Source: a virus
Taxonomy: Duplodnaviria; Caudoviricetes
DNA: 53,988 nt
Reading direction: 5' to 3' (one strand)
Virus record (IMG/VR): IMGVR_UViG_3300036781_000312
Coordinates: 1 to 53,988 of that record
The position numbers were made by a program, and so were the translations under genes. Positions 6,334 to 28,389 of the stretch are shown here, piece by piece. How positions within the stretch are numbered: the first letter of the stretch is position 1; each line of letters begins with the position of its first letter. The notes beneath the pieces were generated by a model, which made no database searches, was not told the origin of the DNA, and saw only the letters and a program-made list of their open reading frames with translations.

Positions 6334-6581
6334 CAGGAACGCTCCCGTTCCTTGGCATTCCAGCCCGCCACGAACGCGGCCTCCAGCCGATTGCGCAGGT
6401 ACTGGCCGCTGGTGGCGCCGGATTGCAGGCGCACGCCCTCCTCGCTCGCTAGGAAGTTGTCGCGCGCGCGGGCGATCGGCGCGCGGTTATCCTGGCGCAC
6501 GCGGCAGGGGCCAAGGCCGCAATCGGCGCAGGTCTTCGGCGCCTGCTTGCCGTCGGCCCAGAGTTGTTGCGAGCAGTTCAT
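6333..6581 (-). CDS. Hypothetical protein
   Basis: ATG at 6581 overlaps the upstream stop. Confidence 0.6.
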   Translation of the reverse strand: MNCSQQLWADGKQAPKTCADCGLGPCRVRQDNRAPIARARDNFLASEEGVRLQSGATSGQYLRNRLEAAFVAGWNAKERERS

Positions 6582-7237
6582 GCGTTGCCTTTCGGAGCCG
6601 CAGGCGCCACGTCTGGCTGCAACCGCCCTTCGGCGCGCGACAGCACCATGTACTTGGCAATTTTTTCCTTTTTCGCCTTGATTGCAGGCAGCCCCACGCT
6701 CTGGCGCAGCAGGCCGTCGTCGACGTAGGTGGTCTGCTCCCGGAGCAATTCCAGCACCGCGCGGAAATCGATCAACTCCCCAGTGAAGCGTTCGGCGTTG
6801 CTGCTGAGCTGGTCGGGCTGCACCTCGCGCGCGCCGAAGCGAAGGGACTTGCACCCGCGCTGGATGATCTCGGAGGCCTCCTCGATGGCGCACACCATCA
6901 GGTAGTCGGAGCGCGTCAGGCCTGGCCGCGGCTGGCTCGCCAGCGCGTACAGTTCGCGGATGAGCTGACGGCATTCGACGTGCGATGCCGTGACGCTGGG
7001 ATGGTCGACCAGATACCGGGCGCGGTCCAGCACCCAGGCTTCGGTACTCTGGTCGGCTTCGACATCGCCTACGACGGGGATGGAAAGGCGGCGCGCCAGC
7101 GGCCGACAGGTCGGGCACGGTTTGCCATCGTCGGCGTCGCCAGTGTGGTCGCAGGTATAGCAATACGCGTGCTGGTGCTCGCGCATGTCGAACCAGCGAT
7201 CGAGAGCGTCGGCGGCGGGTGTGGCGGCAGTGTTCAT
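6578..7237 (-). CDS. Zn-finger plus MazG-like (all-alpha NTP pyrophosphohydrolase) protein
   Basis: N-terminal CxxC...CxxC; EEASEIIQ...GELIDF resembles MazG EExxE...ExxD; RBS GACAGGAG. Confidence 0.55.
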   Translation of the reverse strand: MNTAATPAADALDRWFDMREHQHAYCYTCDHTGDADDGKPCPTCRPLARRLSIPVVGDVEADQSTEAWVLDRARYLVDHPSVTASHVECRQLIRELYALASQPRPGLTRSDYLMVCAIEEASEIIQRGCKSLRFGAREVQPDQLSSNAERFTGELIDFRAVLELLREQTTYVDDGLLRQSVGLPAIKAKKEKIAKYMVLSRAEGRLQPDVAPAAPKGNA

Positions 7238-7385
7238 GAAGTCTCCTGTCTTTGCGAAGCCGTGTTCCAGCACGGCGGTTCAAACAACAGCGGCCTTTCA
7301 CCGCCTCGGCCGCAGGCTCCCTGCGGCTCGGCCCCGTCGCAGCGCGCTCTACGCGACTAGCGGCCTTTTCTGCAACGCGAAATTG

Positions 7386-8303
7386 TTAGAACGGTGCCGG
7401 TTCAGCGCTCTCCGGCACCGGGTCGTCATGCCCGCCCAGAACCTCGATCAGCCGGTAAATCACACGCAGCATTTCGGTGGTGGCGATCAGCGTGTCGCTG
7501 TCGAAGCGGTCAGCCTCTTCGATGTCCGCCGCCATCACGCCGTCCAGAAACCTGATTTTCTTGAGCTGCAGCGTGTCGGTGAGCGTGAAGGCGATGCGGC
7601 CCTCGAAGCCCATCGCCAGGCGGGTCGGCATCTTGCCGGCGGCGACGTGGGCGCGGACCTCGGCGACGTCCAGGTGGTGCTGCGTGTAGCGGACTGCCGC
7701 GCCGCTGTCATCCTTGGCCTTAAGCTCCAGGTCACGATCAACGTCGAGTTCCGAGGGAAGGCTGATGCCTGATAGCCAGGACGCCATGCCAGCCGCCGGC
7801 GACGACGCGGTGGCGATGGGCGCCGCGGTCAGGCCGGGGGCGGACTTGAATAGGCACGTCAGCACTTCCTCCGCCTTCGTGCGGCTGCCGGTGTCGATCG
7901 CCAGCAGGCGCGACGCCGGCGCCAGCCACACCAAGATGCTCTCCTGCCGGGTGAAAGCCTGCGGCAGCAACTGCATGTAGGTGTCCTCGCGGATTTCGCG
8001 CGCCTGCTTCTTTCCCGGCTTGCGGCCAGTGATCTGCTCGATGCTCGCCAGCCGCTCCTCGGCCTTGCGGCGCACCACCGCGCCCGGCAGCACGCGGACC
8101 TCGCTCTTAAAGCGCAGGATGACTTGGCCGGCGATGGCCTCCGCCAGTGCGCCGTGCTCCTCGCCGCGCGGGGGAATCCAGCCGCAGGACTTCTCCTGGG
8201 TGGGCAGGCATTCGGCGAACTGCGCGCCGGCGAGGCCCGCCACCAGGTCATCGAATTGCCATTGCGTGTCGCCCAAGCGGTACAGGATCAGGTTTTTGAA
8301 CAT
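7386..8303 (-). CDS. rdgC: Recombination-associated protein RdgC
   Basis: MFKNLILYRL start, GWIPPRG, LLPQAF, KIRFLD; 305 aa. Confidence 0.93.
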   Translation of the reverse strand: MFKNLILYRLGDTQWQFDDLVAGLAGAQFAECLPTQEKSCGWIPPRGEEHGALAEAIAGQVILRFKSEVRVLPGAVVRRKAEERLASIEQITGRKPGKKQAREIREDTYMQLLPQAFTRQESILVWLAPASRLLAIDTGSRTKAEEVLTCLFKSAPGLTAAPIATASSPAAGMASWLSGISLPSELDVDRDLELKAKDDSGAAVRYTQHHLDVAEVRAHVAAGKMPTRLAMGFEGRIAFTLTDTLQLKKIRFLDGVMAADIEEADRFDSDTLIATTEMLRVIYRLIEVLGGHDDPVPESAEPAPF

Positions 8304-8315
8304 GGCGTTTTCAGG

Positions 8316-8384
8316 AAAAAGGGTGGGACTCGGCGCTCCGGCACGCTAGATGACAGGAGGGTTTTGCCTCGGCGCTCCGTCCCA
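8316..8384 (-). ncRNA. Candidate antisense sRNA hairpin with loop CCCUCCUGUCAUCUAGCG
   Basis: UGGGAC/GUCCCA and GGCA/UGCC stems, a self-pairing direct repeat GGAGCGCCGA, trailing U5; loop complementary to five leaders. Confidence 0.55.
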
Positions 8385-8392
8385 TTGATCGG

Positions 8393-8941
8393 TCAGTGGT
8401 AGTCGGTGAACTTCAAAATCTTGTCTACGATTTCATCCAGCTCGGCGCGGCCCGCGTAGTTCGTCAGCACGCGATCGAGCAGCACCTGGGCCACGGCGTC
8501 GTAGAGGCGGTCGAACTCGTCGTCCTCCATGTTTGCGAAGGCGATGGATTTGGCGACAACCTGCATGCGCCCTTCCAGGTCCCAGTGCTGCTCGTAGTAA
8601 CCGGCCAGCTTGGTCACATCCTTGCGGAACGTGTCGAAATTCTTTTCCACCAGCATGCCCCGGTAGGTCTTGTGGACCCGCTTGGCACCCCAGTGCTCAA
8701 ACCCGAGATTGAGCAGCGCGAAAAACTTCCGATGTTTGATCGGGTCGCGCGGGAAAACGAGGGATAGGTTGAACATTTCCCCCTGTTCGGCTTTGAACAG
8801 GCGGGTGAGGAACTTGCGCCACTTCTTCGCATCGTCGTCGGTGAGCCCGCCGACGCAATCCAGCAAGGTGCGATGTAGCGCGGCGCGCTCGACCTCGGTG
8901 AGCGCGAAGGGCTCTTTGACGACAATGGAAAGATCGGCCAC
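8393..8941 (-). CDS. DUF1367-family protein
   Basis: HRKFFALL...FRKDVTKLAGYY...SIAFANMEDDEFDRLY. Confidence 0.8.
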   Translation of the reverse strand: MADLSIVVKEPFALTEVERAALHRTLLDCVGGLTDDDAKKWRKFLTRLFKAEQGEMFNLSLVFPRDPIKHRKFFALLNLGFEHWGAKRVHKTYRGMLVEKNFDTFRKDVTKLAGYYEQHWDLEGRMQVVAKSIAFANMEDDEFDRLYDAVAQVLLDRVLTNYAGRAELDEIVDKILKFTDYH

Positions 8942-13440: not shown

Positions 13441-13743
13441 TCAGTCCCCCGTCCAGTTGCGCCCGCTGCGCGCGCCGTCGATCGGCTTGGCGATCTGCGC
13501 CATGTCGATGCGGATTTCGGGGATACCGGCGTAGGCCAGCGCGCAGTGAGCGGCATTCGCGCGCATCAATTCGTCATAGCAACGGGTGATGGCTTCGCGC
13601 CAGGCTTGCAGGGAACCGAACGCAACCTCGCCCTGCTTCGGGGTGAGGCTGCGCATGGTGATGTAGGCGCTGCTGGCGTCGAGGGCCGCGATATGGGCCT
13701 CGTCGATCGCTTCCTGCCGGGTGTCGGTGGTGGCGGTGTTCAC
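13441..13743 (-). CDS. First gene of PL operon, hypothetical
   Basis: GTG with RBS GACAGGAGG. Confidence 0.7.
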   Translation of the reverse strand: MNTATTDTRQEAIDEAHIAALDASSAYITMRSLTPKQGEVAFGSLQAWREAITRCYDELMRANAAHCALAYAGIPEIRIDMAQIAKPIDGARSGRNWTGD

Positions 13744-13837
13744 GGTACTACCTCCTGTCTCTGCCTTTGGTGTTCCAGCACCGCAGGCTTCGGTTTGGTT
13801 TTCATCTATCGGCGGCTAGCGACCACCGATGAATTGA

Positions 13838-13878
13838 ATTATACGCTTTCGTATTTTTGTGTCAATACGTTTTCGCAT
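13838..13878 (-). promoter_or_regulatory. PL promoter (TTGACA-16-TATAAT) with operators at 13841..13854 and 13865..13878
   Basis: Consensus hexamers overlapped by ATACG-N4-CG(T/C)AT palindromes. Confidence 0.88.
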
Positions 13879-13920
13879 TTATTTTTGCCAAATGGAGTTC
13901 CATACAGTAAATTCCACTGT

Positions 13921-14603: not shown

Positions 14604-15317
14604 TTAGAAGAAGCGCATCACCATTTCGCGCACCACGCCGCAGATCACCGCGTCGTCGCGCAGCTCCATCGTCGGGAAGGCTGGGTTTAGCGGCTGGAGG
14701 AACTGCCGGCCACCGTCGCGCACCAGGCGCTTGAACGTGACTTCCTCGTCAAACCCCTGCCGCGCCACTACAAAGTGGTTCGGCAGCGCCTCGATGTCGG
14801 GCTCCACGATGATGATGCAGCCGTGCGGGAAGCTGGGCGAACCGTTCGGGTTTTCCATGCTCGGCCCGTTCACGCGCAGCGCGAAGGTGTGCTTGCGGAT
14901 CGGCACTGTGGTATCGACCCACTCCTCCGCATCACCAGGTGAAAAGTTGTCGACTACGTTGGCCCAGTCGCCGGCCTGTACCCAGGAGATCAAGGGAACG
15001 CTTCCCTGTTTATTCGGGCCGACGGACAGGTTGCTCTTGCCTTCCGCGTCGGCCACGTTTGTTAGTTTCGCCTCGATCATCGACACGGTGTTGGAGTCGT
15101 TCTTCACCAGGATGTCGGGCGCGCCGTAACGCAGCTCCTTTACCGAAATCCGGAAATAGGCGGCCAGCGGTTCGATGGTTTTGTCCCGCGGGCTTTCGTG
15201 CTCGCCGGACAGGATGCGATGGATGGTTGGCTGAGGAACCTTCGTCACGAGGGCGAGCTGAGTGGCGTTCATGCGCCTGTTGTCGAGCAGCTTCTGGAGG
15301 TTTTCAGCAATCGGCAT
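14604..15317 (-). CDS. cI: CI-like repressor (HTH + S24 peptidase)
   Basis: N-terminal HTH, VQAG cleavage site, VNGPSM serine, TFKRL lysine; start 15317 or 15320. Confidence 0.95.
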   Translation of the reverse strand: MPIAENLQKLLDNRRMNATQLALVTKVPQPTIHRILSGEHESPRDKTIEPLAAYFRISVKELRYGAPDILVKNDSNTVSMIEAKLTNVADAEGKSNLSVGPNKQGSVPLISWVQAGDWANVVDNFSPGDAEEWVDTTVPIRKHTFALRVNGPSMENPNGSPSFPHGCIIIVEPDIEALPNHFVVARQGFDEEVTFKRLVRDGGRQFLQPLNPAFPTMELRDDAVICGVVREMVMRFF

Positions 15318-15323
15318 CATCGA

Positions 15324-15399
15324 AAAATACGCCAGCGTATAGCCGCGAGCAAGAAATAATCCGTTTTCGTATTGACATAGCAATACGCTTTCGTATAAT
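15324..15399. promoter_or_regulatory. PR (TTGACA-16-TATAAT), putative PRM (TTGCTC-17-TATTTT, minus) and three operators (15327..15340, 15359..15372, 15383..15396)
   Basis: Same ATACG-N4-CGTAT palindrome as at PL; divergent cI/cro layout. Confidence 0.88.
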
Positions 15400-15406
15400 C
15401 GGCCTG

Positions 15407-19059: not shown

Positions 19060-19087
19060 AATGCAATTTGCAACTGGAAATGGCTAG

Positions 19088-20029
19088 ATGACAGAAAACG
19101 GGAGGCCGGCGCCCCTGGTGCCGGCGGAGGTTGACTTGCGCGGGCTGCCGTTCATGCCGCTGGACGTGGTCCGGCTACTGGACTCGGACCTATTCGCGCT
19201 GTCGAACGGCGATGAATTCAAGGCCGCGGTCGCGCTGTGGTGCAAGTCCTGGTCACAGCATCCCGGCGGCAGCCTGCCGGACGATGACCGCGTGCTGGCG
19301 CACCTCACCAGCACCGGCCCGCGCTGGCGCAAGGTGAAGGCGATGGCGATGCGGGGTTGGGTCCTGTGTTCGGACGGCCGCTGGTATCACCCTGTGGTGG
19401 CGGAAAAGGCCGTTGAAGCGTGGGAGCACCGCCAGGATTATCTGGAGGAGGCCAACAACAACGCCGAGCGCCAGCGCCGTTGGCGGGAGCGTCAGAAAGC
19501 GCTGTCGACCGAAATCCGCGAACTCGGCGGTGTGCCGCCGCGCAAGGCGTCTCTCGAAGCGATGGAAGCGTTACTCACTGAGTTACGGAGTAACCGTTAC
19601 GGCAGTGTTACGTCACCGTCTCAGAGTAACGATGCCGCGATGCCTAAGACAGAGACAGGGACAGAGACAGGGACAGGGACATATTTAAAACCACCCCCTA
19701 CCCCCGCCTTCCCGGTTCGGCCCACCGCGCCCCCGCCACCGCCCGATGAAACCCAGGCCACCCTCGCCGGCGAGGCGGCGAAGGCAATGCGCGAGGCCGG
19801 GGTGCAAGCCGTCAACCCCTCGCACCCGGACCTCCTCGACCTGCTGGCTCGAGGCGTTACGGCACAGCAGCTTGGCGACCTTGCCGCCGAGGTGAAAGCC
19901 GCCCATGGGCCGAAGCCCATGGCCTACGTGTTGAAAGCCATGCAGGGCCGGCTCGAAGCCAGCACCCACCGCACCCCAACCCCGGAGGAAAAGCCCCATG
20001 TCCCACGCGCGACCGTCGAAAAAGCCTGA
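19088..20029 (+). CDS. Replication initiator (DUF1376/YdaU-like)
   Basis: PFMPLDVVRLLDSD, LPDDDRVLA; internal iteron-like repeats; precedes a DnaC-like gene. Confidence 0.8.
   Translation: MTENGRPAPLVPAEVDLRGLPFMPLDVVRLLDSDLFALSNGDEFKAAVALWCKSWSQHPGGSLPDDDRVLAHLTSTGPRWRKVKAMAMRGWVLCSDGRWYHPVVAEKAVEAWEHRQDYLEEANNNAERQRRWRERQKALSTEIRELGGVPPRKASLEAMEALLTELRSNRYGSVTSPSQSNDAAMPKTETGTETGTGTYLKPPPTPAFPVRPTAPPPPPDETQATLAGEAAKAMREAGVQAVNPSHPDLLDLLARGVTAQQLGDLAAEVKAAHGPKPMAYVLKAMQGRLEASTHRTPTPEEKPHVPRATVEKA
19570..19690. repeat. Putative replication origin: GTTAC/GTAAC repeats, (GACAG(A/G))n run, AT-rich patch
   Basis: Visible repeats inside the initiator gene, as in lambdoid origins. Confidence 0.55.
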
Positions 20030-20816
20030 GCTGGACGTGCATGCCGAGGCCGCAGCGCTGATGCACCGCATCGCGGACCCGGCGCCGCGGTCCTCACCAC
20101 TTCGCGTGGTGCCGACCTTCGTCGCCGAGCAAGGCAAGTGCGAAATGCACGGAGCCTACGCCACCAATTTTCGGGACGCTGAGGGCACGGTGCGCTGGCA
20201 CACCCCAGGCTGTCCGACCTGCACGAAGCAGGCCGCGGTCGAACGGCTGATGACCCGCGCCGCAATCTCGCCACGGTTCCAGGACTGCACGTTCGCCAGC
20301 TACCGCACCGAGTCCGAAGGGCAAAAGCTTGCGCTGGACATCTGCGAGCGGTACGCCGCTGACTTCGCGCTGATGCGCCGTACCGGGCAATGCCTGATTC
20401 TGCGGGGCAAACCAGGCACCGGAAAAAATCACTTGGCCACGTCCATCGCGCGCACCGTGCTGGCCGACGGCTTCACCGTGCTCAATGCCACCGCGTTCGA
20501 AATCATCCGCCGCATCCGCGACACCTGGCGCGATGGCGCAACCGAGACCGAGCAGCAGGTAATCCAGGCCTTCGCCGACATCGACCTGCTGATCATCGAC
20601 GAGCTGGGCCGGCACCACAACGCAAAGGACGGGAAAGAGAGCGTGGAGCTTTTCCAGGTGATCGACCAGCGCTACCGCCAGATCCGCCCGACGGTGGCGA
20701 TCAGCAATCTGGACCGCGACGGGATCACGAAGGCGATCGGCGCGGCCGCGTTCGACAGGCTGCGCGAAGGCGGCGCATCGCTGGTGAATTTTGAATGGGC
20801 TTCGGCCCGCGAATAG
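19998..20816 (+). CDS. DnaC/IstB-like helicase loader ATPase
   Basis: GKPGTGKNHLA Walker A, LLIIDELG Walker B, ISNL, DRL. Confidence 0.92.
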   Translation: MSHARPSKKPELDVHAEAAALMHRIADPAPRSSPLRVVPTFVAEQGKCEMHGAYATNFRDAEGTVRWHTPGCPTCTKQAAVERLMTRAAISPRFQDCTFASYRTESEGQKLALDICERYAADFALMRRTGQCLILRGKPGTGKNHLATSIARTVLADGFTVLNATAFEIIRRIRDTWRDGATETEQQVIQAFADIDLLIIDELGRHHNAKDGKESVELFQVIDQRYRQIRPTVAISNLDRDGITKAIGAAAFDRLREGGASLVNFEWASARE

Positions 20817-23287: not shown

Positions 23288-23485
23288 CTATTTGGCAGCC
23301 AGCCTGTCCAGCGCCGCGCGGATGCCGGCCGACAGGTTGCCCTTGCCCAGCCGCTCCGCGGTCGCATATTGCGTGTCGTTCAGGCGCAGCGCAACCAGGT
23401 TGGAGCGCTTGCCGGCGGGATCAGGCTTCGGGCCAGCGCCCTTTCGAGCGCCGCCGCGCTTGGCCGGAGGTGCAGCTTTCGGCAT
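23288..23485 (-). CDS. Small basic putative DNA-binding protein
   Basis: RGGARKGAGPKP followed by an RHH-like segment. Confidence 0.65.
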   Translation of the reverse strand: MPKAAPPAKRGGARKGAGPKPDPAGKRSNLVALRLNDTQYATAERLGKGNLSAGIRAALDRLAAK

Positions 23486-23486
23486 T

Positions 23487-23798
23487 TCAGTTTCCGTGCG
23501 GTGTGGCGATCAGGATGTATTCCCGGCCGTCAATGATCGTGGTTTGAAACGCGGTGTCTTGCAGGTTTTGGTAGGCCTCGACCTCGCGGGCGAAGTCGGC
23601 ATTGTCCGCGATTTGCCCCTCGTCGTCGTGGTTGCGCACCGCGATCGCCTCCAGGTGCATGGGCAGGCCGTTGATCGTGATTTCAGTCAGCAAACGCGCG
23701 CGCGGATCGTATCCATCCTCATCGTCCGGCCCGTCGGGGCCAGTCTCCTGCCATGCGTAGGGGTTGATGGTGATCGCGGTAAAATTCGTTTCAGCCAT
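23487..23798 (-). CDS. Acidic hypothetical protein
   Basis: RBS GACAGGAG; D/E-rich. Confidence 0.7.
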   Translation of the reverse strand: MAETNFTAITINPYAWQETGPDGPDDEDGYDPRARLLTEITINGLPMHLEAIAVRNHDDEGQIADNADFAREVEAYQNLQDTAFQTTIIDGREYILIATPHGN

Positions 23799-23871
23799 AG
23801 CTGGGATACTCCTGTCTCTCGGTTCGGTTAGGGGGGAGCAACGTGGTTCCAGCCGCGCCCCCCGTTCAGGA

Positions 23872-24111
23872 TTATTTGATTTCGTCGATGGGCAAGCTTT
23901 CGATCAGCGATTCGCCGGTCTCCTCGCTCACCAGGTCGGCGATGCGCAGATCGTCGCAGAGGTCGTGATGAGGCGCGAATACTAGATAGCCAACCTCCCA
24001 ATTTTTCGCTATGGCCTTCGCTTTGGCTTCCGCCTCCGCGTCGCTTTCGGCTTCAATTTCTACTTCGGCGTAGCACGGAGCGTTATAGGCCAGCACCAGG
24101 TTGTATTTCAT
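23872..24111 (-). CDS. Acidic hypothetical protein
   Basis: VEIEAESDAEAEAKA motif; RBS GGAG. Confidence 0.7.
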   Translation of the reverse strand: MKYNLVLAYNAPCYAEVEIEAESDAEAEAKAKAIAKNWEVGYLVFAPHHDLCDDLRIADLVSEETGESLIESLPIDEIK

Positions 24112-24159
24112 GATCGGCTCCGGTGAGGGAGCGCGCCCCTTTCGAGGCGCGCCCGCTGG

Positions 24160-25143
24160 TTAGGCTGCGGTGACGAGCTGACCGGCCAGCGCGAAGGCTT
24201 CATCTTTCAGCTTCGCGCCCTCGCCGAACCATGCCGCGTCAAGCCCGGTGCTGCGCGACAGGCCGCGCTCATGGTCCACGTACTCGGTCACGGCGTTGAC
24301 CAAGCCCCACATCGTGCCCTTGACCATGTCGGCGCCGATTGCCTCGCCGTTGAACAGCGCGCTGATGCGCTTGTAGCCCTTGCTGGCGCGCACCTTGTCT
24401 TGCGCCTCCTGGCCTTGCGCGGCCTTGAACAAGTGGAGCAGGAAGGCGTCGGACAGCTTCTCGTCGACCTTCGCCGCCGCCATCTTGCGGGTGCGCATCA
24501 GGAATTCATCCCAACCGCTGATGGCAATGCCGAGCTGCTCGCGCACCGCCGCCGCGTTGAAATGGGCGAAATGCGGGATCTTCACTTTTGGCTCAGCGGC
24601 GCCAGCGCGCGCACCATCACCGGCCGCAGCGCTCAGCGTGTTGTTGCACACCACGCGGATGCTGGTGAACTGCGCGGTGGTCGCCATGCTGGCATCGTAG
24701 GACGTGGCGAACAGAAGATAGGGGCGAATGTTGTCGCCGTCGATGATGCGCGCTTCTTCGCCGACGCGGGCCAGGGCCCAGATGCGATTGCCGCCGCGCA
24801 GGCAGCCGGCGGTTTCGAGCTCGAAGCCCGCGCCCTTCACCAGCTCGTCGAAGAAGCCCAGCACCTGGGACGGTTGCACGGTCTTGTAAAGGTCGCTCAC
24901 GGTCGAGAGCGCAGCGCCGGTGTCGTCACGCACCAGCACGCGGCGGCCGTCGAACACCCTGCGCTCGCCCTTGTATTCGAATTCAACCGGCACTTCGGCC
25001 ACGTTCCAATTCAGGCCGGCGGCGGTGCGCCAGGTTTCCAGATCGGCGCCGGCGGGAAGCTTGGAGCCGAGGCCATGCCAGGGGGTTTTGCCAATAAAGG
25101 CGACGTTTGCGCGGTTGTTCGAGAAGTCGATTTCGTGAGCCAT
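24160..25143 (-). CDS. DUF932/DUF945-family protein
   Basis: MAHEI...PWHGLG...AGLNW...ETAGCLRGG...TSIRVVCNNTL...NAVTEYVDH. Confidence 0.9.
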   Translation of the reverse strand: MAHEIDFSNNRANVAFIGKTPWHGLGSKLPAGADLETWRTAAGLNWNVAEVPVEFEYKGERRVFDGRRVLVRDDTGAALSTVSDLYKTVQPSQVLGFFDELVKGAGFELETAGCLRGGNRIWALARVGEEARIIDGDNIRPYLLFATSYDASMATTAQFTSIRVVCNNTLSAAAGDGARAGAAEPKVKIPHFAHFNAAAVREQLGIAISGWDEFLMRTRKMAAAKVDEKLSDAFLLHLFKAAQGQEAQDKVRASKGYKRISALFNGEAIGADMVKGTMWGLVNAVTEYVDHERGLSRSTGLDAAWFGEGAKLKDEAFALAGQLVTAA

Positions 25144-25198
25144 GTGATTCTCCTGTCAGTTTGTGGGGTGATCCGGTGTTCCAGCACCGTTATTGATA

Positions 25199-25227
25199 AT
25201 GTTATACACAATCAAATGGGAACGCAA
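25199..25227 (-). promoter_or_regulatory. Putative promoter of DUF932 cassette (TTGCGT-17-TAACAT)
   Basis: Sigma70-like hexamers just upstream of the leader hairpin. Confidence 0.55.
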
Positions 25228-25295
25228 GGCTTTTATCTTGTGCGGTGCAACCCAGAGGGAGAAATCCTCGTTTTGGCAACGGGCGCGGCCATTGC

Positions 25296-25323
25296 TTGAC
25301 ACGCGAAAAATCCGTGGTATCTT
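25296..25323 (+). promoter_or_regulatory. Putative late promoter PR' (TTGACA-16-TATCTT, TG-extended)
   Basis: Near-consensus hexamers upstream of late genes, followed by a terminator. Confidence 0.7.
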
Positions 25324-25334
25324 CCCCACTTACA

Positions 25335-25445
25335 ACTCGTTGGGTGCATAGGCCTTCGGCTTAGGAGCATCCCCACAGCGCCTAAATGCCTGTGTGACGC
25401 CTGCCGGAATGGCAGGCACCCGCGCCAGCAAAAGGCGCCACGAGT
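25335..25445 (+). ncRNA. Candidate multibranch structured RNA
   Basis: Five to six mutually compatible stems between the promoter and terminator. Confidence 0.5.
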
Positions 25446-25460
25446 GAGCCCCGACCGATG

Positions 25461-25485
25461 AAGCCCGCCGATGCGCGGGCTTTTT
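25461..25485 (+). terminator. Intrinsic terminator (tR'-like)
   Basis: AAGCCCGC-loop-GCGGGCTT followed by T run. Confidence 0.8.
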
Positions 25486-25538
25486 GCTTTTCCAGCGTCC
25501 ACCCCGTTGCGTTTACCCGTCAACTACCTGGAGCTGAA

Positions 25539-25862
25539 ATGTCACTCACCTTGAAACGATCCCTCTGCACCGCCCTCGTCGCCATGGCCGTCACCGTCGT
25601 CGCCTACGTCTTGTTGTCGGACCACGGTACCGTCTCGGCGCTGGTCAACATCGGCGCGTCGATCGCTATCGGCGCCAGCTTCGGTTACGGGCTCAGCCTC
25701 CTCGACCTGCGACCGGCTGCCGGCGACAAGCCGGCCTTCCAGGGCTACTGCGTCGACCACACCCGCGCCAGCCTCGCGCGCGCCGCCGGCCGCACCAGCA
25801 CCGGCTCGTTCCTGCGCGGCAAGGGCATCGCCTGCGGCTTCTGGTCCCTGGCGCACGCCTAA
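25539..25862 (+). CDS. Membrane protein
   Basis: RBS GGAG, two hydrophobic helices. Confidence 0.65.
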   Translation: MSLTLKRSLCTALVAMAVTVVAYVLLSDHGTVSALVNIGASIAIGASFGYGLSLLDLRPAAGDKPAFQGYCVDHTRASLARAAGRTSTGSFLRGKGIACGFWSLAHA

Positions 25863-25866
25863 AGCG

Positions 25867-26040
25867 GTGAAGTACCTCCCCATCGCCACTGCGGTCGCCT
25901 GGCTGCTCACGTACTGGGCGTTCGCGGCGGCGAGCAAGGGCGGTGACGACTTCGGCGCCGGCCTGCTGTATTGGCTGGTGCTGGTGGTCGCCGCCCTCCT
26001 CTCGCTCATTACGTTCGTCAGGGCGTTTTTTCTGCACTGA
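25867..26040 (+). CDS. Small membrane protein
   Basis: GTG start, two hydrophobic helices; read by hand. Confidence 0.45.
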   Translation: MKYLPIATAVAWLLTYWAFAAASKGGDDFGAGLLYWLVLVVAALLSLITFVRAFFLH

Positions 26041-26194
26041 CGCAACCATCAATGGTCGACGGCGCACGCGCGAGCGACCCGCCCTTGCCGTGTGTTCCCG
26101 GCCGGCCGTCCTGTGTTTCATTGCTGTACTCCTCGGTGATTCATCCCACCACCTGGTGCGCCGGTTCCCCTGCTGGCGCACCCATTTATTCCTT

Positions 26195-26797
26195 ATGACT
26201 CGCGCAAAGCTCAACACCGTCCCGATCGACAGCGTCCGCCTCGACCCGGAGAACGTGCGCGAGCACAACGAGCGCAACCTGGTTGCGATCACAAAGAGCC
26301 TGGAGAAGTTCGGCCAGCAAAAGCCCATCGTCATCGACAACGATGGCGTCATCGTCGCCGGCAACGGCACATGGATGGGCGCGAAGCGCCTGCACTGGAC
26401 GGAAATCTGGGTCACGGTCACGGAGCTGGAGGGCGAAGCCAAAACCGCCTTCGCCCTGGCCGACAACCACATCAACGAGCTGTCCTACTTCAATGAGGAC
26501 GCGCTGGCGGCCACGATAGGCGCGATCAGCGACACCGATTTGCTGGAGGCTGCCGGCTTCGACACCGGCGAGCTGAACGATATTTTTCGCGGATCTTCCG
26601 AGCCCATCGAACTCGAGGCCGCGGGCGAAAGCGCCGGCGCGGGTGGCGGCAACAAGAAGCCAGTCACCGTGCGCGTGGCCATCGCCGTGCGCAGCGTTGA
26701 GGCCTTCGAGCAGGCGCTGAGCGCGACCGGCCTCATGAACCGCGAAGAGGCGCTGCTGGAAGTGTGCCGCACCTATGTCGAAGCAAAAGGACAATAG
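26195..26797 (+). CDS. ParB N-terminal (ParB/Srx) domain protein
   Basis: NVREHN...SLEKFGQQKPIVID...IVAGNG...ALADN. Confidence 0.88.
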   Translation: MTRAKLNTVPIDSVRLDPENVREHNERNLVAITKSLEKFGQQKPIVIDNDGVIVAGNGTWMGAKRLHWTEIWVTVTELEGEAKTAFALADNHINELSYFNEDALAATIGAISDTDLLEAAGFDTGELNDIFRGSSEPIELEAAGESAGAGGGNKKPVTVRVAIAVRSVEAFEQALSATGLMNREEALLEVCRTYVEAKGQ

Positions 26798-27449
26798 CAC
26801 CCTCGACGCCAAGCTACGGCTGCGGCGCGCAGTGCTGAAAAATGCGCCGCCGGCGCCGATGGTGCTCGAAACGCATGGCGGCAATGGCCGCGTCTACGAA
26901 CGCGCGTGGTACACCGCGAGCGGCGGCTGCGTCATCGAAAAGGACAGCGGGAAAATCGAGCAGCTAGCGCAGCAGCGCCCGCATTGGTCGGTCTTCGAGG
27001 GCGATTGCATCGCCGCGCTGGGAGCCGGGCTGATGAGCAGCACGGCCTTTGACGTTGTGGACGTTGATCCCTACGGCTCGCCACTACCGATCTTCGATGC
27101 GTTGTTCCATGTGGAACGCACCTTCCCCGAGCGCTGGCACCTGGTGGTGAACGATGGCATGCGGCAGAAGCTGCAACGCGGCGGCGCTTGGCATGTGGCC
27201 GAGTTGGCGCGCATCGTGGCGCGCCGGGGCAACAATCTTGCCCCGGTGTACCTGGAAGTGGCGCGCGAGCTGGTAGAAGCCTTCGCGCTGCGGATCGGCT
27301 ACCAAGTCGCCGGCTGGCACGGCTACTACACCGGCGACAAAGGCCTGATGACCCATTATTGGGCCGTGCTGGAGCGGATCAGTGGTGCTGCTGCACCCGC
27401 ATCGGGTTGTGATAACCCTCCGGCAGATACGGCTGCAGGTCCTTCTTGA
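26775..27449 (+). CDS. SAM-dependent methyltransferase-like protein (Trm1/TcmP-like DPYG motif)
   Basis: VLETHGGNG (motif I), IEKD, GDC, FDVVDVDPYGSP. Confidence 0.7.
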   Translation: MSKQKDNSTLDAKLRLRRAVLKNAPPAPMVLETHGGNGRVYERAWYTASGGCVIEKDSGKIEQLAQQRPHWSVFEGDCIAALGAGLMSSTAFDVVDVDPYGSPLPIFDALFHVERTFPERWHLVVNDGMRQKLQRGGAWHVAELARIVARRGNNLAPVYLEVARELVEAFALRIGYQVAGWHGYYTGDKGLMTHYWAVLERISGAAAPASGCDNPPADTAAGPS

Positions 27450-28221
27450 TGTAGTGGGCGGCGCCGAGCTGCTTGCACAGCTCGATCATGCGCAGCGTGT
27501 AGTCGCGCCAGTCGGTGGTCTTGGTGATGTCCACGTAGTTCACGCGGCCGATCTTGTAGAGGTCGACAAAGCCGTGCGTCTCGCGCACGATTTCCAGGCT
27601 GGCCTCGACGTCCAGGGTGGGCTCCAGGCTCACCCAGGTGTAGATGCCGCGCTCGTGGAAGGCTTTCAGCGCTGCAAGGCGATCGGCCGGCAGCGCCGCC
27701 CCGCTCTCCCATTTGCGCGAGAACGCATCATCCAGGCTGGTGATGGTCGAGGCGAACGAATCGCGGTCAGCGCGGAAAATGCTGATGTCGCGCAGGCTGC
27801 GCGTGCCTCCCTTAGTCAGCGTGCAGATGGCCAGGCCGTGCTCCTGCAGCACATCGAGCGTTTGGCGCGTCAGCGTGTTGTCGCCTGGGTGGTAGGGGTC
27901 GCTGGTGAAGCTGAGCATGACCTGCTCGCCGATGCCGGCAGCCTGATATTTCTTGGCGTCGCGCTTGAGGTTGTCGAGATAGCCGGCGCGCCACACCGCG
28001 CCTTCATTGAATTCGACGCGCGGCTGCTTGGTGATCAGCGGCACGTAGCAGTAGGCGCACTTGTGCCCGCAGCCGCGGTACGGATTCGCTGCCAGCGGCG
28101 CGTATTCCCCGGCCTGGCCGGCGGGCGCGTAGATGAACGAACAGCCTTTGATCGACACGCCATCGGGCTTAAGCGTGGAAACGGGAATGCGGGTCTCTTT
28201 CGAGACGGCGAGGCTCGTCAT
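27379..28221 (-). CDS. Radical SAM protein (SPL/Rv2578c-like)
   Basis: NPYRGCGHKCAYCY (CX3CX2C), SDPY, TLTK, SLEP. Confidence 0.88.
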   Translation of the reverse strand: MTSLAVSKETRIPVSTLKPDGVSIKGCSFIYAPAGQAGEYAPLAANPYRGCGHKCAYCYVPLITKQPRVEFNEGAVWRAGYLDNLKRDAKKYQAAGIGEQVMLSFTSDPYHPGDNTLTRQTLDVLQEHGLAICTLTKGGTRSLRDISIFRADRDSFASTITSLDDAFSRKWESGAALPADRLAALKAFHERGIYTWVSLEPTLDVEASLEIVRETHGFVDLYKIGRVNYVDITKTTDWRDYTLRMIELCKQLGAAHYIKKDLQPYLPEGYHNPMRVQQHH

Positions 28222-28389
28222 TGTGAATCTCCTGTCAAGTTAGAACCGTGTTCCAGCACGGTAGGAGTATTAGAGCAAAAAATACCATTTTTGTCTACTA
28301 AATCAATAACTTACGTATTTTCCTTTTAGAACGAAAGGGTTACGGGAGTTTTGTTCGTCGCGGCGGCGCCGTGGCGGGAAGGTGGGAAT

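Follow-up and report, generated by a model that had tools for sequence, protein, structure and literature searches.

Trans-acting antisense RNAs that govern a phage's own early genes are, as far as the available accounts extend, a handful of enterobacterial elements, among them P1/P7 c4 and P4 CI (PMC12197685, PMC4825925). The c4 RNA of the P1/P7 immI operon is described as a trans-acting antisense RNA made from the operon of its own target, in which short loop-displayed stretches pair around the ribosome-binding site (RBS) and block synthesis of the downstream product (PMC12197685, PMC8546580). P4 CI RNA is described as processed from a primary transcript and as pairing with two sites on that same transcript, one upstream and one downstream, to shut the operon down (PMC4825925). 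Among more distant cases, the DicF sRNA of the Qin prophage, which has a terminator-hairpin-like structure, is reported to lie within an early-type operon and to pair in trans at translation starts, and P22 sar and lambda OOP are listed as antisense RNAs repressing early or regulatory genes at or near translation starts (PMC12197685). The c4/P4 CI type denotes a functional kind, not a homology family. Within it, c4, reportedly a processed RNA of 77 bases, is encoded upstream of icd-ant and undergoes maturation by RNase P, and the CA RNA of N15-type phages is comparable to P4 CI.

The window analysed here, a complete IMG/VR virus record of 53,988 bp with a G+C content of 64%, contains a hairpin element at 8316–8392 on the minus strand that is probably a trans-acting antisense RNA of the P1 c4/P4 CI kind, encoded within the leftward (PL) operon of the phage. 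As in c4, the RNA would be operon-encoded and would display short complementary stretches in a loop, with an RBS of the same operon as target; two antiparallel segments of the element are complementary to a transcript of its own operon, one of them at the RBS. Unlike c4, to which Rfam gives no homology in sequence or structure (a search that covers the C4 family only if it is present in release 15), the element consists of one hairpin only, with a large bipartite loop, is located about 5.4 kb downstream of its predicted target, and faces not an antirepressor but the first gene behind PL of a phage with a CI/LexA-like repressor. P4 CI brings about premature transcription termination in the lysogen and serves as immunity factor, whereas a protein repressor is present here, and the sRNA would therefore be made only when PL is open; the targets, a 5′ hairpin loop and a Shine-Dalgarno sequence (SD), also differ from those of P4 CI, to which no homology was found in Rfam. 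DicF addresses host mRNAs such as ftsZ, whereas the conserved predicted target of the element is the phage's own PL leader, and Rfam gives no match. The sar and OOP RNAs are cis-encoded on the strand opposite the targets they overlap, in contrast to an element on the same strand as its target, ~5.4 kb away, with 15–17 nt of bipartite complementarity. The element is outside every described RNA family and would work like c4 and CI in a new layout; no description of it was found in open-access text.

The phage and its leftward operon

The layout of the phage (W) is that of a temperate lambdoid-type phage, with an integrase gene at 73–1095, a CI-like repressor gene (HTH and peptidase S24 domains) at 14604–15383, replication genes at 19088–20816, and terminase genes from 28351. 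A PL-type early promoter on the minus strand (13838–13865; TTGACA-16-TATAAT, matching at 12 of 12 positions) lies downstream of the CI-like repressor gene, and the plus-facing rightward promoter, PR (15372–15399), is likewise a perfect TTGACA-16-TATAAT. PL (13838–13900) and PR (15360–15400) both sit within CGTATT...AATACG-type repeats, which are probably the operators of the CI-like repressor. In two virus records related to W, G001 (G1) and G002 (G2), the equivalent consensus-like early promoters are flanked by other palindromes, ATTACCAAANGGTAAT and TATTAGT...ACTAATA; because the promoter palindromes differ, the protein repressors of the three phages appear to be heteroimmune.

On the minus strand, the leftward operon extends from 13743 to 7386 or beyond. 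Its genes, which mostly abut or overlap, code for an HNH nuclease, a phrog_3657 protein, a RecE-like exonuclease, a KTSC protein, NinB/DUF1367 (8393–8941, minus; Pfam PF07105, phrog_319), and RdgC (7386–8303, minus; PF04381, E = 1e-90). Since the genes between 13743 and 7386 are all on the minus strand, four of their junctions overlap by 4 nt, and no strong terminator intervenes, a PL transcript would include the element. The first PL gene (13441–13743, minus; GTG start at 13741–13743) encodes a 100-aa orphan protein without a Pfam or PHROG family. In a set of 5.8 billion proteins it has just two clusters, those of W and G002, and a profile found only G002. The G002 relative is 34–35% identical, and G001 has a 31-codon ORF at the same position instead.

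The hosts of these phages are probably uncultured soil bacteria of the Burkholderiales. The closest relatives of rdgC in genomes are in Burkholderiales MAGs, and the stretch is contained in one DNA sequencing run, a soil metagenome that may be its source, and in no RNA run. The only match in the phage collection is in rdgC, at 67% identity, in Acidovorax phage ACP17. At E ≤ 1e-10, NinB has no match in 401 genomes sampled from the order to which a Paucibacter genome belongs, and it has none in genome contigs.

A conserved hairpin between ninB and rdgC

The hairpin that the sequence-only reading had placed in the DUF1367–rdgC gap, on the minus strand, is found exactly at 8316–8384. Together with a 5′ flank, CCGAUCAA (8385–8392), and the tail CCCUUUUU, it makes up the candidate sRNA element. 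Read from 8384 to 8316 on the minus strand, its sequence is TGGGAC-GGAGCGCC-GA-GGCA-[AAACCCTCCTGTCATCTAGCG]-TGCC-GGAGCGCC-GA-GTCCCA-CCC-TTTTT. The stop codon of ninB and the ATG of rdgC are 89 nt apart, and the hairpin takes up most of this interval, beginning 8 nt past the TGA of ninB and ending, in W, 12 nt short of the ATG. The two GGAGCGCC blocks are direct, not inverted, repeats, of which the GCGC cores alone pair, and both centroid and consensus folds consist of 6 bp, a 3×3 internal loop, 4 bp, a second 3×3 internal loop, 4 bp, and a 21-nt loop, AAACCCUCCUGUCAUCUAGCG. The rdgC gene is without a GGAG-type SD in all three phages, with only A-rich GAAAAC or GAGAAAC between hairpin and ATG (8301–8315 in the window; just before position 2501 in loci L057 and L058).

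The fold of the W hairpin has a minimum free energy (MFE) of −22.6 kcal/mol, against −24.2 ± 3.2 kcal/mol for shuffled sequences (z = +0.50; 134 of 200 shuffles fold as well or better), and the corresponding z values for G001 and G002 are −0.35 and −1.18. Because the W hairpin is no more stable than its shuffles, stability alone is no evidence. Scans of both strands around 8200–8500 gave no promoter-like (sigma-70-like) site. The sequence-only reading had not recognised the hairpin as a described family, and Rfam bears this out for both window and element: release 15 gives no match at gathering score across the whole window, DicF, sar, and similar families included, and at E ≤ 10 over 8200–8500 no family falls on the element, the sole match being v-snoRNA-1 at 8410–8474, outside it, which scores 12.5 bits where the threshold is 75 (E = 4.3).

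The element also lies directly 5′ of rdgC in G001 (36 kb, 58% complete) and G002 (34 kb, 54% complete), whose NinB and RdgC proteins are, respectively, 73–76% and 65–66% identical to those of W. In both relatives a small nuclease gene separates ninB from the element, which thus travels with the 5′ side of rdgC. Across the three elements, compensatory changes occur at 2 of 13 consensus pairs (A-U/G-C and C-G/G-C). The 5′ flank CGAUCAA, the basal stem, the 3×3 GGA/CGA internal loop, and the CUAGCG at the 3′ end of the loop are invariant; the 5′ half of the loop varies, being CCCUCCUGUC in W, AUCUCCUGUC in G001, and UUCUCUCUCCUCAAC in G002. The flank and basal stem (8365–8392 and 8316–8343, minus) are thus unchanged next to proteins that are only 65–76% identical, and the invariant flank, basal stem, and internal loop may be a recognition signal for a nuclease or another protein.

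A covariance model of the element, R1, matches W, G001, and G002 alone among 93 sources, at 94–110 bits; on the 88 other loci, namely the rdgC loci of 7 viral and 80 genomic sources and the NinB locus L007, its scores do not exceed 18 bits, and it matches in none of 151 genomes. The loop word CTCCTGTCWTCTAGCG occurs in 4 viral stretches, the G001 copy being the one genuine case among them, and in 45 genome stretches, none sharing the flanks. The flank/stem word GATCAATGGGRCGGAGCGC occurs in two viral stretches, G001 and G002, and in 15 genome stretches, none with the rest of the element. A stem-to-stem pattern returned the same two viral stretches and 10 metagenome stretches, none with the loop or flank, and the first metagenome pattern returned 0 stretches. 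No further member thus appeared in viral, genome, metagenome, or covariance-model scans, leaving aside five stem-to-stem genome stretches, which lie in non-Burkholderiales records.

Loop–leader complementarity and its co-variation

The three phages share the same arrangement at the start of the leftward operon: TTGACA, 16–17 nt, a −10 box, 7–9 nt, a hairpin with a UCGCUAG loop, an SD, and a start codon. The PL mRNA of W would begin ~7 nt past TATAAT, which puts the hairpin AUCGGUGG-UCGCUAG-CCGCCGAU (13808–13830, minus) at its predicted 5′ end. The corresponding hairpins are GGUGA-UCGCUAG-UCACC in G001 and GGUGC-UCGCUAG-GCACC in G002, where the SD follows 3–7 nt on and then the start codon. One stem pair is G-C, A-U, and C-G across the three phages, and the UCGCUAG loop is constant. 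A search with the leader-hairpin word found 11 viral stretches, with the promoter/SD context in G001 and G002 only. In W a second hairpin, GUG-CUGGAA-CAC (13770–13781, minus), stands between the first and the SD of the first PL gene, GACAGGAGG (13751–13759, minus).

Both the 5′ hairpin loop and the SD have a complement in the loop of the element. The 3′ half of that loop, CUAGCG (8344–8349, minus), is the exact complement of CGCUAG in the PL 5′ hairpin, and the 5′ half, CCUCCUGUC (8352–8360, minus), can pair over 9 nt with the SD that precedes the first PL gene; the complement of this half, GACAGGAG(G), serves as SD in five W leaders. In W, leader CGCUAG and GACAGGAGG face CUAGCG and CCUCCUGUC. 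In G001, leader CGCUAG and GACAGGAGA face CUAGCG and UCUCCUGUC, a G→A change in the leader being matched by C→U in the sRNA. In G002, leader CGCUAGG and GGAGAGAGAA face a rewritten loop, UUCUCUCUCC...CCUAGCG, in which the kissing segment is one pair longer, and the 10-mer of this SD/anti-SD match is unique in the G002 contig. The order of the segments is antiparallel in all three phages. The covariation by which the sequence-only reading had proposed to judge its antisense interpretation is thus present in both relatives, in the leader that opens the operon after the early promoter.

The collinear exact segments amount to 6+9, 6+9, and 7+10 nt, or 15, 15, and 17 nt, for W, G001, and G002, respectively. 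When the loop is shuffled with its composition preserved, totals this high arise in 1, 2, and 0 of 5000 trials. Cognate duplexes have energies of −22.9 (W), −21.7 (G001), and −27.3 kcal/mol (G002), whereas the G002 leader gives −12.9 kcal/mol with the W loop and −14.1 with the G001 loop, and the W leader gives −14.8 with the G002 loop. Cognate and non-cognate duplexes are thus 8–14 kcal/mol apart between the W/G001 group and G002, with one exception: the G002 loop scores −21.3 kcal/mol on the G001 leader, and specificity between the groups is therefore incomplete. In G002 the PL leader is the best non-self site among 4520 windows. Three non-self places outscore it in W (−25.9, −25.4, and −25.3 against −22.9 kcal/mol), and three do so in G001 on duplex energy; these places are probably fortuitous, and genome-wide duplex energy was set aside as a target criterion for W and G001, where it does not discriminate. 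Any strong SD would find a complement in an anti-SD loop, which makes part of the match cheap; and since the anti-SD is shared between W and G001, all of the co-variation is carried by G002 and the single G/A–C/U change.

A possible processing or termination hairpin acting in cis

The hairpin could instead act in cis only, as an intercistronic processing or termination structure: an RNase III/E site, comparable to the hairpins between the genes of T7 early mRNA, or else a leaky terminator, which stabilises the ninB message or sets rdgC expression, with the leader match reduced to incidental SD/anti-SD complementarity. Its position fits such a role, for it always stands directly before rdgC (17–25 nt), and this constancy in front of an SD-less gene makes a cis function plausible as well; the stem, ~20 bp-equivalents long with conserved internal loops, would suit a processing site, CCCUUUUU follows directly after the stem in W, and basal stem and flank are better conserved than the 5′ half of the loop. 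As a terminator, however, the element is unconvincing, having a loop of 21–25 nt where terminators have short ones of ~3–8 nt, and a terminator scan covering loops of 3–8 nt does not report it. A U-run after the stem is present in W only, the tails being CCCUUUUU in W, CCCUUUACC in G001, and AACCCCUUACG in G002. Nor does a purely cis-acting hairpin account for an unchanging CUAGCG that has an equally unchanging CGCUAG as its counterpart in the hairpin loop at the PL 5′ end, or for a rewritten anti-SD that matches a rewritten SD in G002. As a complete explanation it is therefore unlikely. Processing in cis is nonetheless compatible with an antisense RNA, as the way in which that RNA is made.

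Dispersed leaders in W

The sequence-only reading had further claimed that the loop is complementary to the RBS of five leaders, and this holds in W: GACAGGAG occurs six times on the two strands of the window (shuffle mean 1.19, maximum 5; none of 100 shuffles reaches 6), five of these being minus-strand copies, at 7243, 13752, 23809, 25150, and 28229, each serving as an SD 5–10 nt before a start codon, and the sixth being the complement of the hairpin loop. A GACA prefix is found in just these 5 of 61 GGAG-plus-start contexts. Apart from the first PL gene, the leaders precede a gene for an NTP pyrophosphohydrolase-like protein (phrog_4856, 6578–7237; leader 1 at 7243–7273, with the hairpin GUGCUGGAACAC), a gene with no assigned function (23487–23798; leader 3 at 23809–23853, with GCUGGAAC in the loop of its hairpin), a DUF932 gene (24160–25143; leader 4 at 25150–25187, hairpin and SD), and a radical-SAM gene (27379–28221; leader 5 at 28229–28259, hairpin and SD), all on the minus strand. 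The 12-nt hairpin GUGCUGGAACAC is identical in four leaders (7262–7273, 13770–13781, 25176–25187, and 28248–28259, minus), and the spacers of 10–22 nt that connect it to the SD are unrelated between leaders. GTGCTGGAACAC is exact in four of the five leaders, and the fifth has GCTGGAAC in a different hairpin.

The pairing of UCUAGCG with the GCUGGA loops that had been proposed for these leaders stands in part. The sRNA stretch UCUAGCGUG and leader CGUGCUGGA form 9 antiparallel pairs, 3 of them G-U, and RNAduplex recovers the pairing for leaders 1, 4, and 5; only in this orientation of the strands do the three differences of CGUGCUGGA from the perfect complement of the loop become G-U pairs. What CUAGCG faces in all three phages is, however, the UCGCUAG hairpin (13808–13830 in W), which the sequence-only reading had not mentioned. 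The GCUGGAA hairpins and four of the five leaders are seen in W only, and no GCUGGAA motif with up to 2 mismatches was found beside a leader in the partial contigs of G001 and G002. The proposed dispersed regulon, for all its five SD leaders in W, is therefore without comparative support. What survives of the antisense interpretation is its core, through the comparison of loop and leader; its kissing partner was another, and its five-leader regulon is confined to W.

The GUGCUGGAACAC stem, GGUG/CACC, resembles the stems of the UCGCUAG hairpins in G001 and G002, and on account of this resemblance the hairpin may be a derived copy. A protein partner for its conserved stem bases is possible. In leader 5 (28216–28268, minus), the SD GACAGGAGU has a potential pairing partner in an ACUCCU upstream, with the GCUGGAA hairpin enclosed between them; the fold has an MFE of −12.9 kcal/mol, 10 of 200 shuffles fold as well, and the SD of this leader may possibly be self-sequestered. 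Between the replication and packaging modules, 23288–28221 is a mixed-strand island with DUF932, ParB-like nuclease, radical-SAM, and small unknown genes, the three minus-strand units of which carry the shared leader.

A possible further target, in W only, is GCUAGAUGACAG (GCTAGATGACAG) at 19083–19094 on the plus strand, a 12-nt perfect complement of the loop over the ATG of a replication protein gene (19088–20029). In the genome-wide duplex scan it ranks second among non-self places (−25.4 kcal/mol). The ATG at 19088 is overlapped by a three-codon mini-ORF, ATG GCT AGA TGA.

Several other readings were weighed on the sequence alone and rejected. A sigma-54 promoter reading of TGGAAC founders on an unsuitable GG-GC spacing. 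A lambda-N/boxB reading does so on a first PL protein without an arginine-rich N-terminus and on a leader 1 that follows a terminator-like hairpin, and an HK022 put-like reading on the single hairpin of G001 and G002. A small plus-strand ORF at the element is not conserved.

Protein-binding and DNA-level alternatives

The leader motifs, a GGA-loop hairpin followed by an ACAGGAG SD, might equally be sites of an RNA-binding regulator, host CsrA/RsmA or a phage protein, to which the hairpin at 8316–8384 would be unrelated. In each of the five W leaders a GGA within a hairpin loop is joined, 10–22 nt away, by a second within the SD, an arrangement that presumably resembles CsrA-type sites, and the stem bases GUG/CAC are as well conserved as the loop, which kissing would not require. 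The W leaders thus fit the pattern of a CsrA/RsmA leader, but conservation and the availability of CsrA do not: the conserved PL hairpin loops of W, G001, and G002 are UCGCUAG and contain no GGA, the phage has no match to the CsrA family, and, of 61 genomes sampled from the order that contains the closest rdgC hosts, 1 has CsrA, the host assignment being itself indirect. Binding of such a protein would moreover leave the co-variation of loop and leader without explanation, and this account is quite improbable.

Least credible, indeed very improbable, is that the shared words act at the level of DNA, with one protein binding CGCTAG...GACAGGAG in the leaders and its inverted form at 8344–8360, or as a plus-strand mimic of the leader: the plus strand of the element does read CGCTAG-AT-GACAGGAGG, in which the words of the leader recur in unchanged order and closer together, and the stems, being all Watson-Crick, give no indication of strand, but a word spacing of 2–5 nt in the element against 8, 11, and 38 nt in the leaders is unfavourable for a single DNA-binding protein, the leader words lie in RNA hairpin loops on co-varying stems that include a U-G pair possible on the mRNA strand only, and a plus-strand RNA has against it the lack of a promoter-like site near 8200–8500 on either strand, the lack of a conserved plus-strand ORF on reading the sequences, and differences that are G-U-compatible in minus-strand RNA only.

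Proposed mechanism and implications

In the antisense mechanism that we favour, the sRNA locus, ~5.4–5.45 kb downstream of PL in the same operon as its target, would be transcribed as part of the polycistronic PL message, from which the sRNA would be cut out by processing. Release by processing is suggested by the lack of a nearby promoter, the conserved single-stranded 5′ flank CGAUCAA, and the conserved basal stem with its GGA/CGA internal loop; flank and basal stem would then be the processing signals. The 21–25-nt loop would pair in two segments with the 5′ leader of its own operon, its 3′ half, CUAGCG, kissing the UCGCUAG loop of the predicted 5′ hairpin of the PL mRNA and its 5′ half, a 9–10-nt anti-SD stretch, covering the SD of the first PL gene. 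Ribosome binding would thereby be blocked, perhaps followed by polarity or decay of the operon, and the outcome would be delayed negative feedback on early-left expression. The W loop could pair as well with the four other leaders that share GACAGGAG and the GCUGGAA hairpin, and its match to 12 contiguous bases over the replication gene start codon might offer another site.

A bolder and distinctly more doubtful proposal is that the element acts as a timer: after polymerase has covered the 5.4 kb of the PL operon that precede it, the sRNA, once released, would shut off the immediate-early messages that share a leader cassette of kissing hairpin and extended SD. In W this set would include the first PL gene, the NTP-pyrophosphohydrolase-like gene, DUF932, radical-SAM, and, through the 12-nt match over its AUG, the replication initiator, with DUF932 and radical-SAM as moron-type genes that have promoters of their own. 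Were this tentative proposal correct, the specificity of the RNA would be re-programmable by co-evolution of loop and leader, as between W/G001 and G002, giving RNA specificity groups of a heteroimmune-like kind alongside the protein repressor of the phage.

If the element is an antisense RNA as proposed, it would represent an unrelated antisense family in phages of uncultured, probably Burkholderiales, soil bacteria. Its layout would differ from that of the enterobacterial elements, with the regulator deep inside the operon it targets and recognition of a predicted 5′-end hairpin together with the SD, and in W several dispersed leaders would be addressed through a shared cassette. The three natural variants would then constitute a small specificity-swap set, W and G001 against G002.
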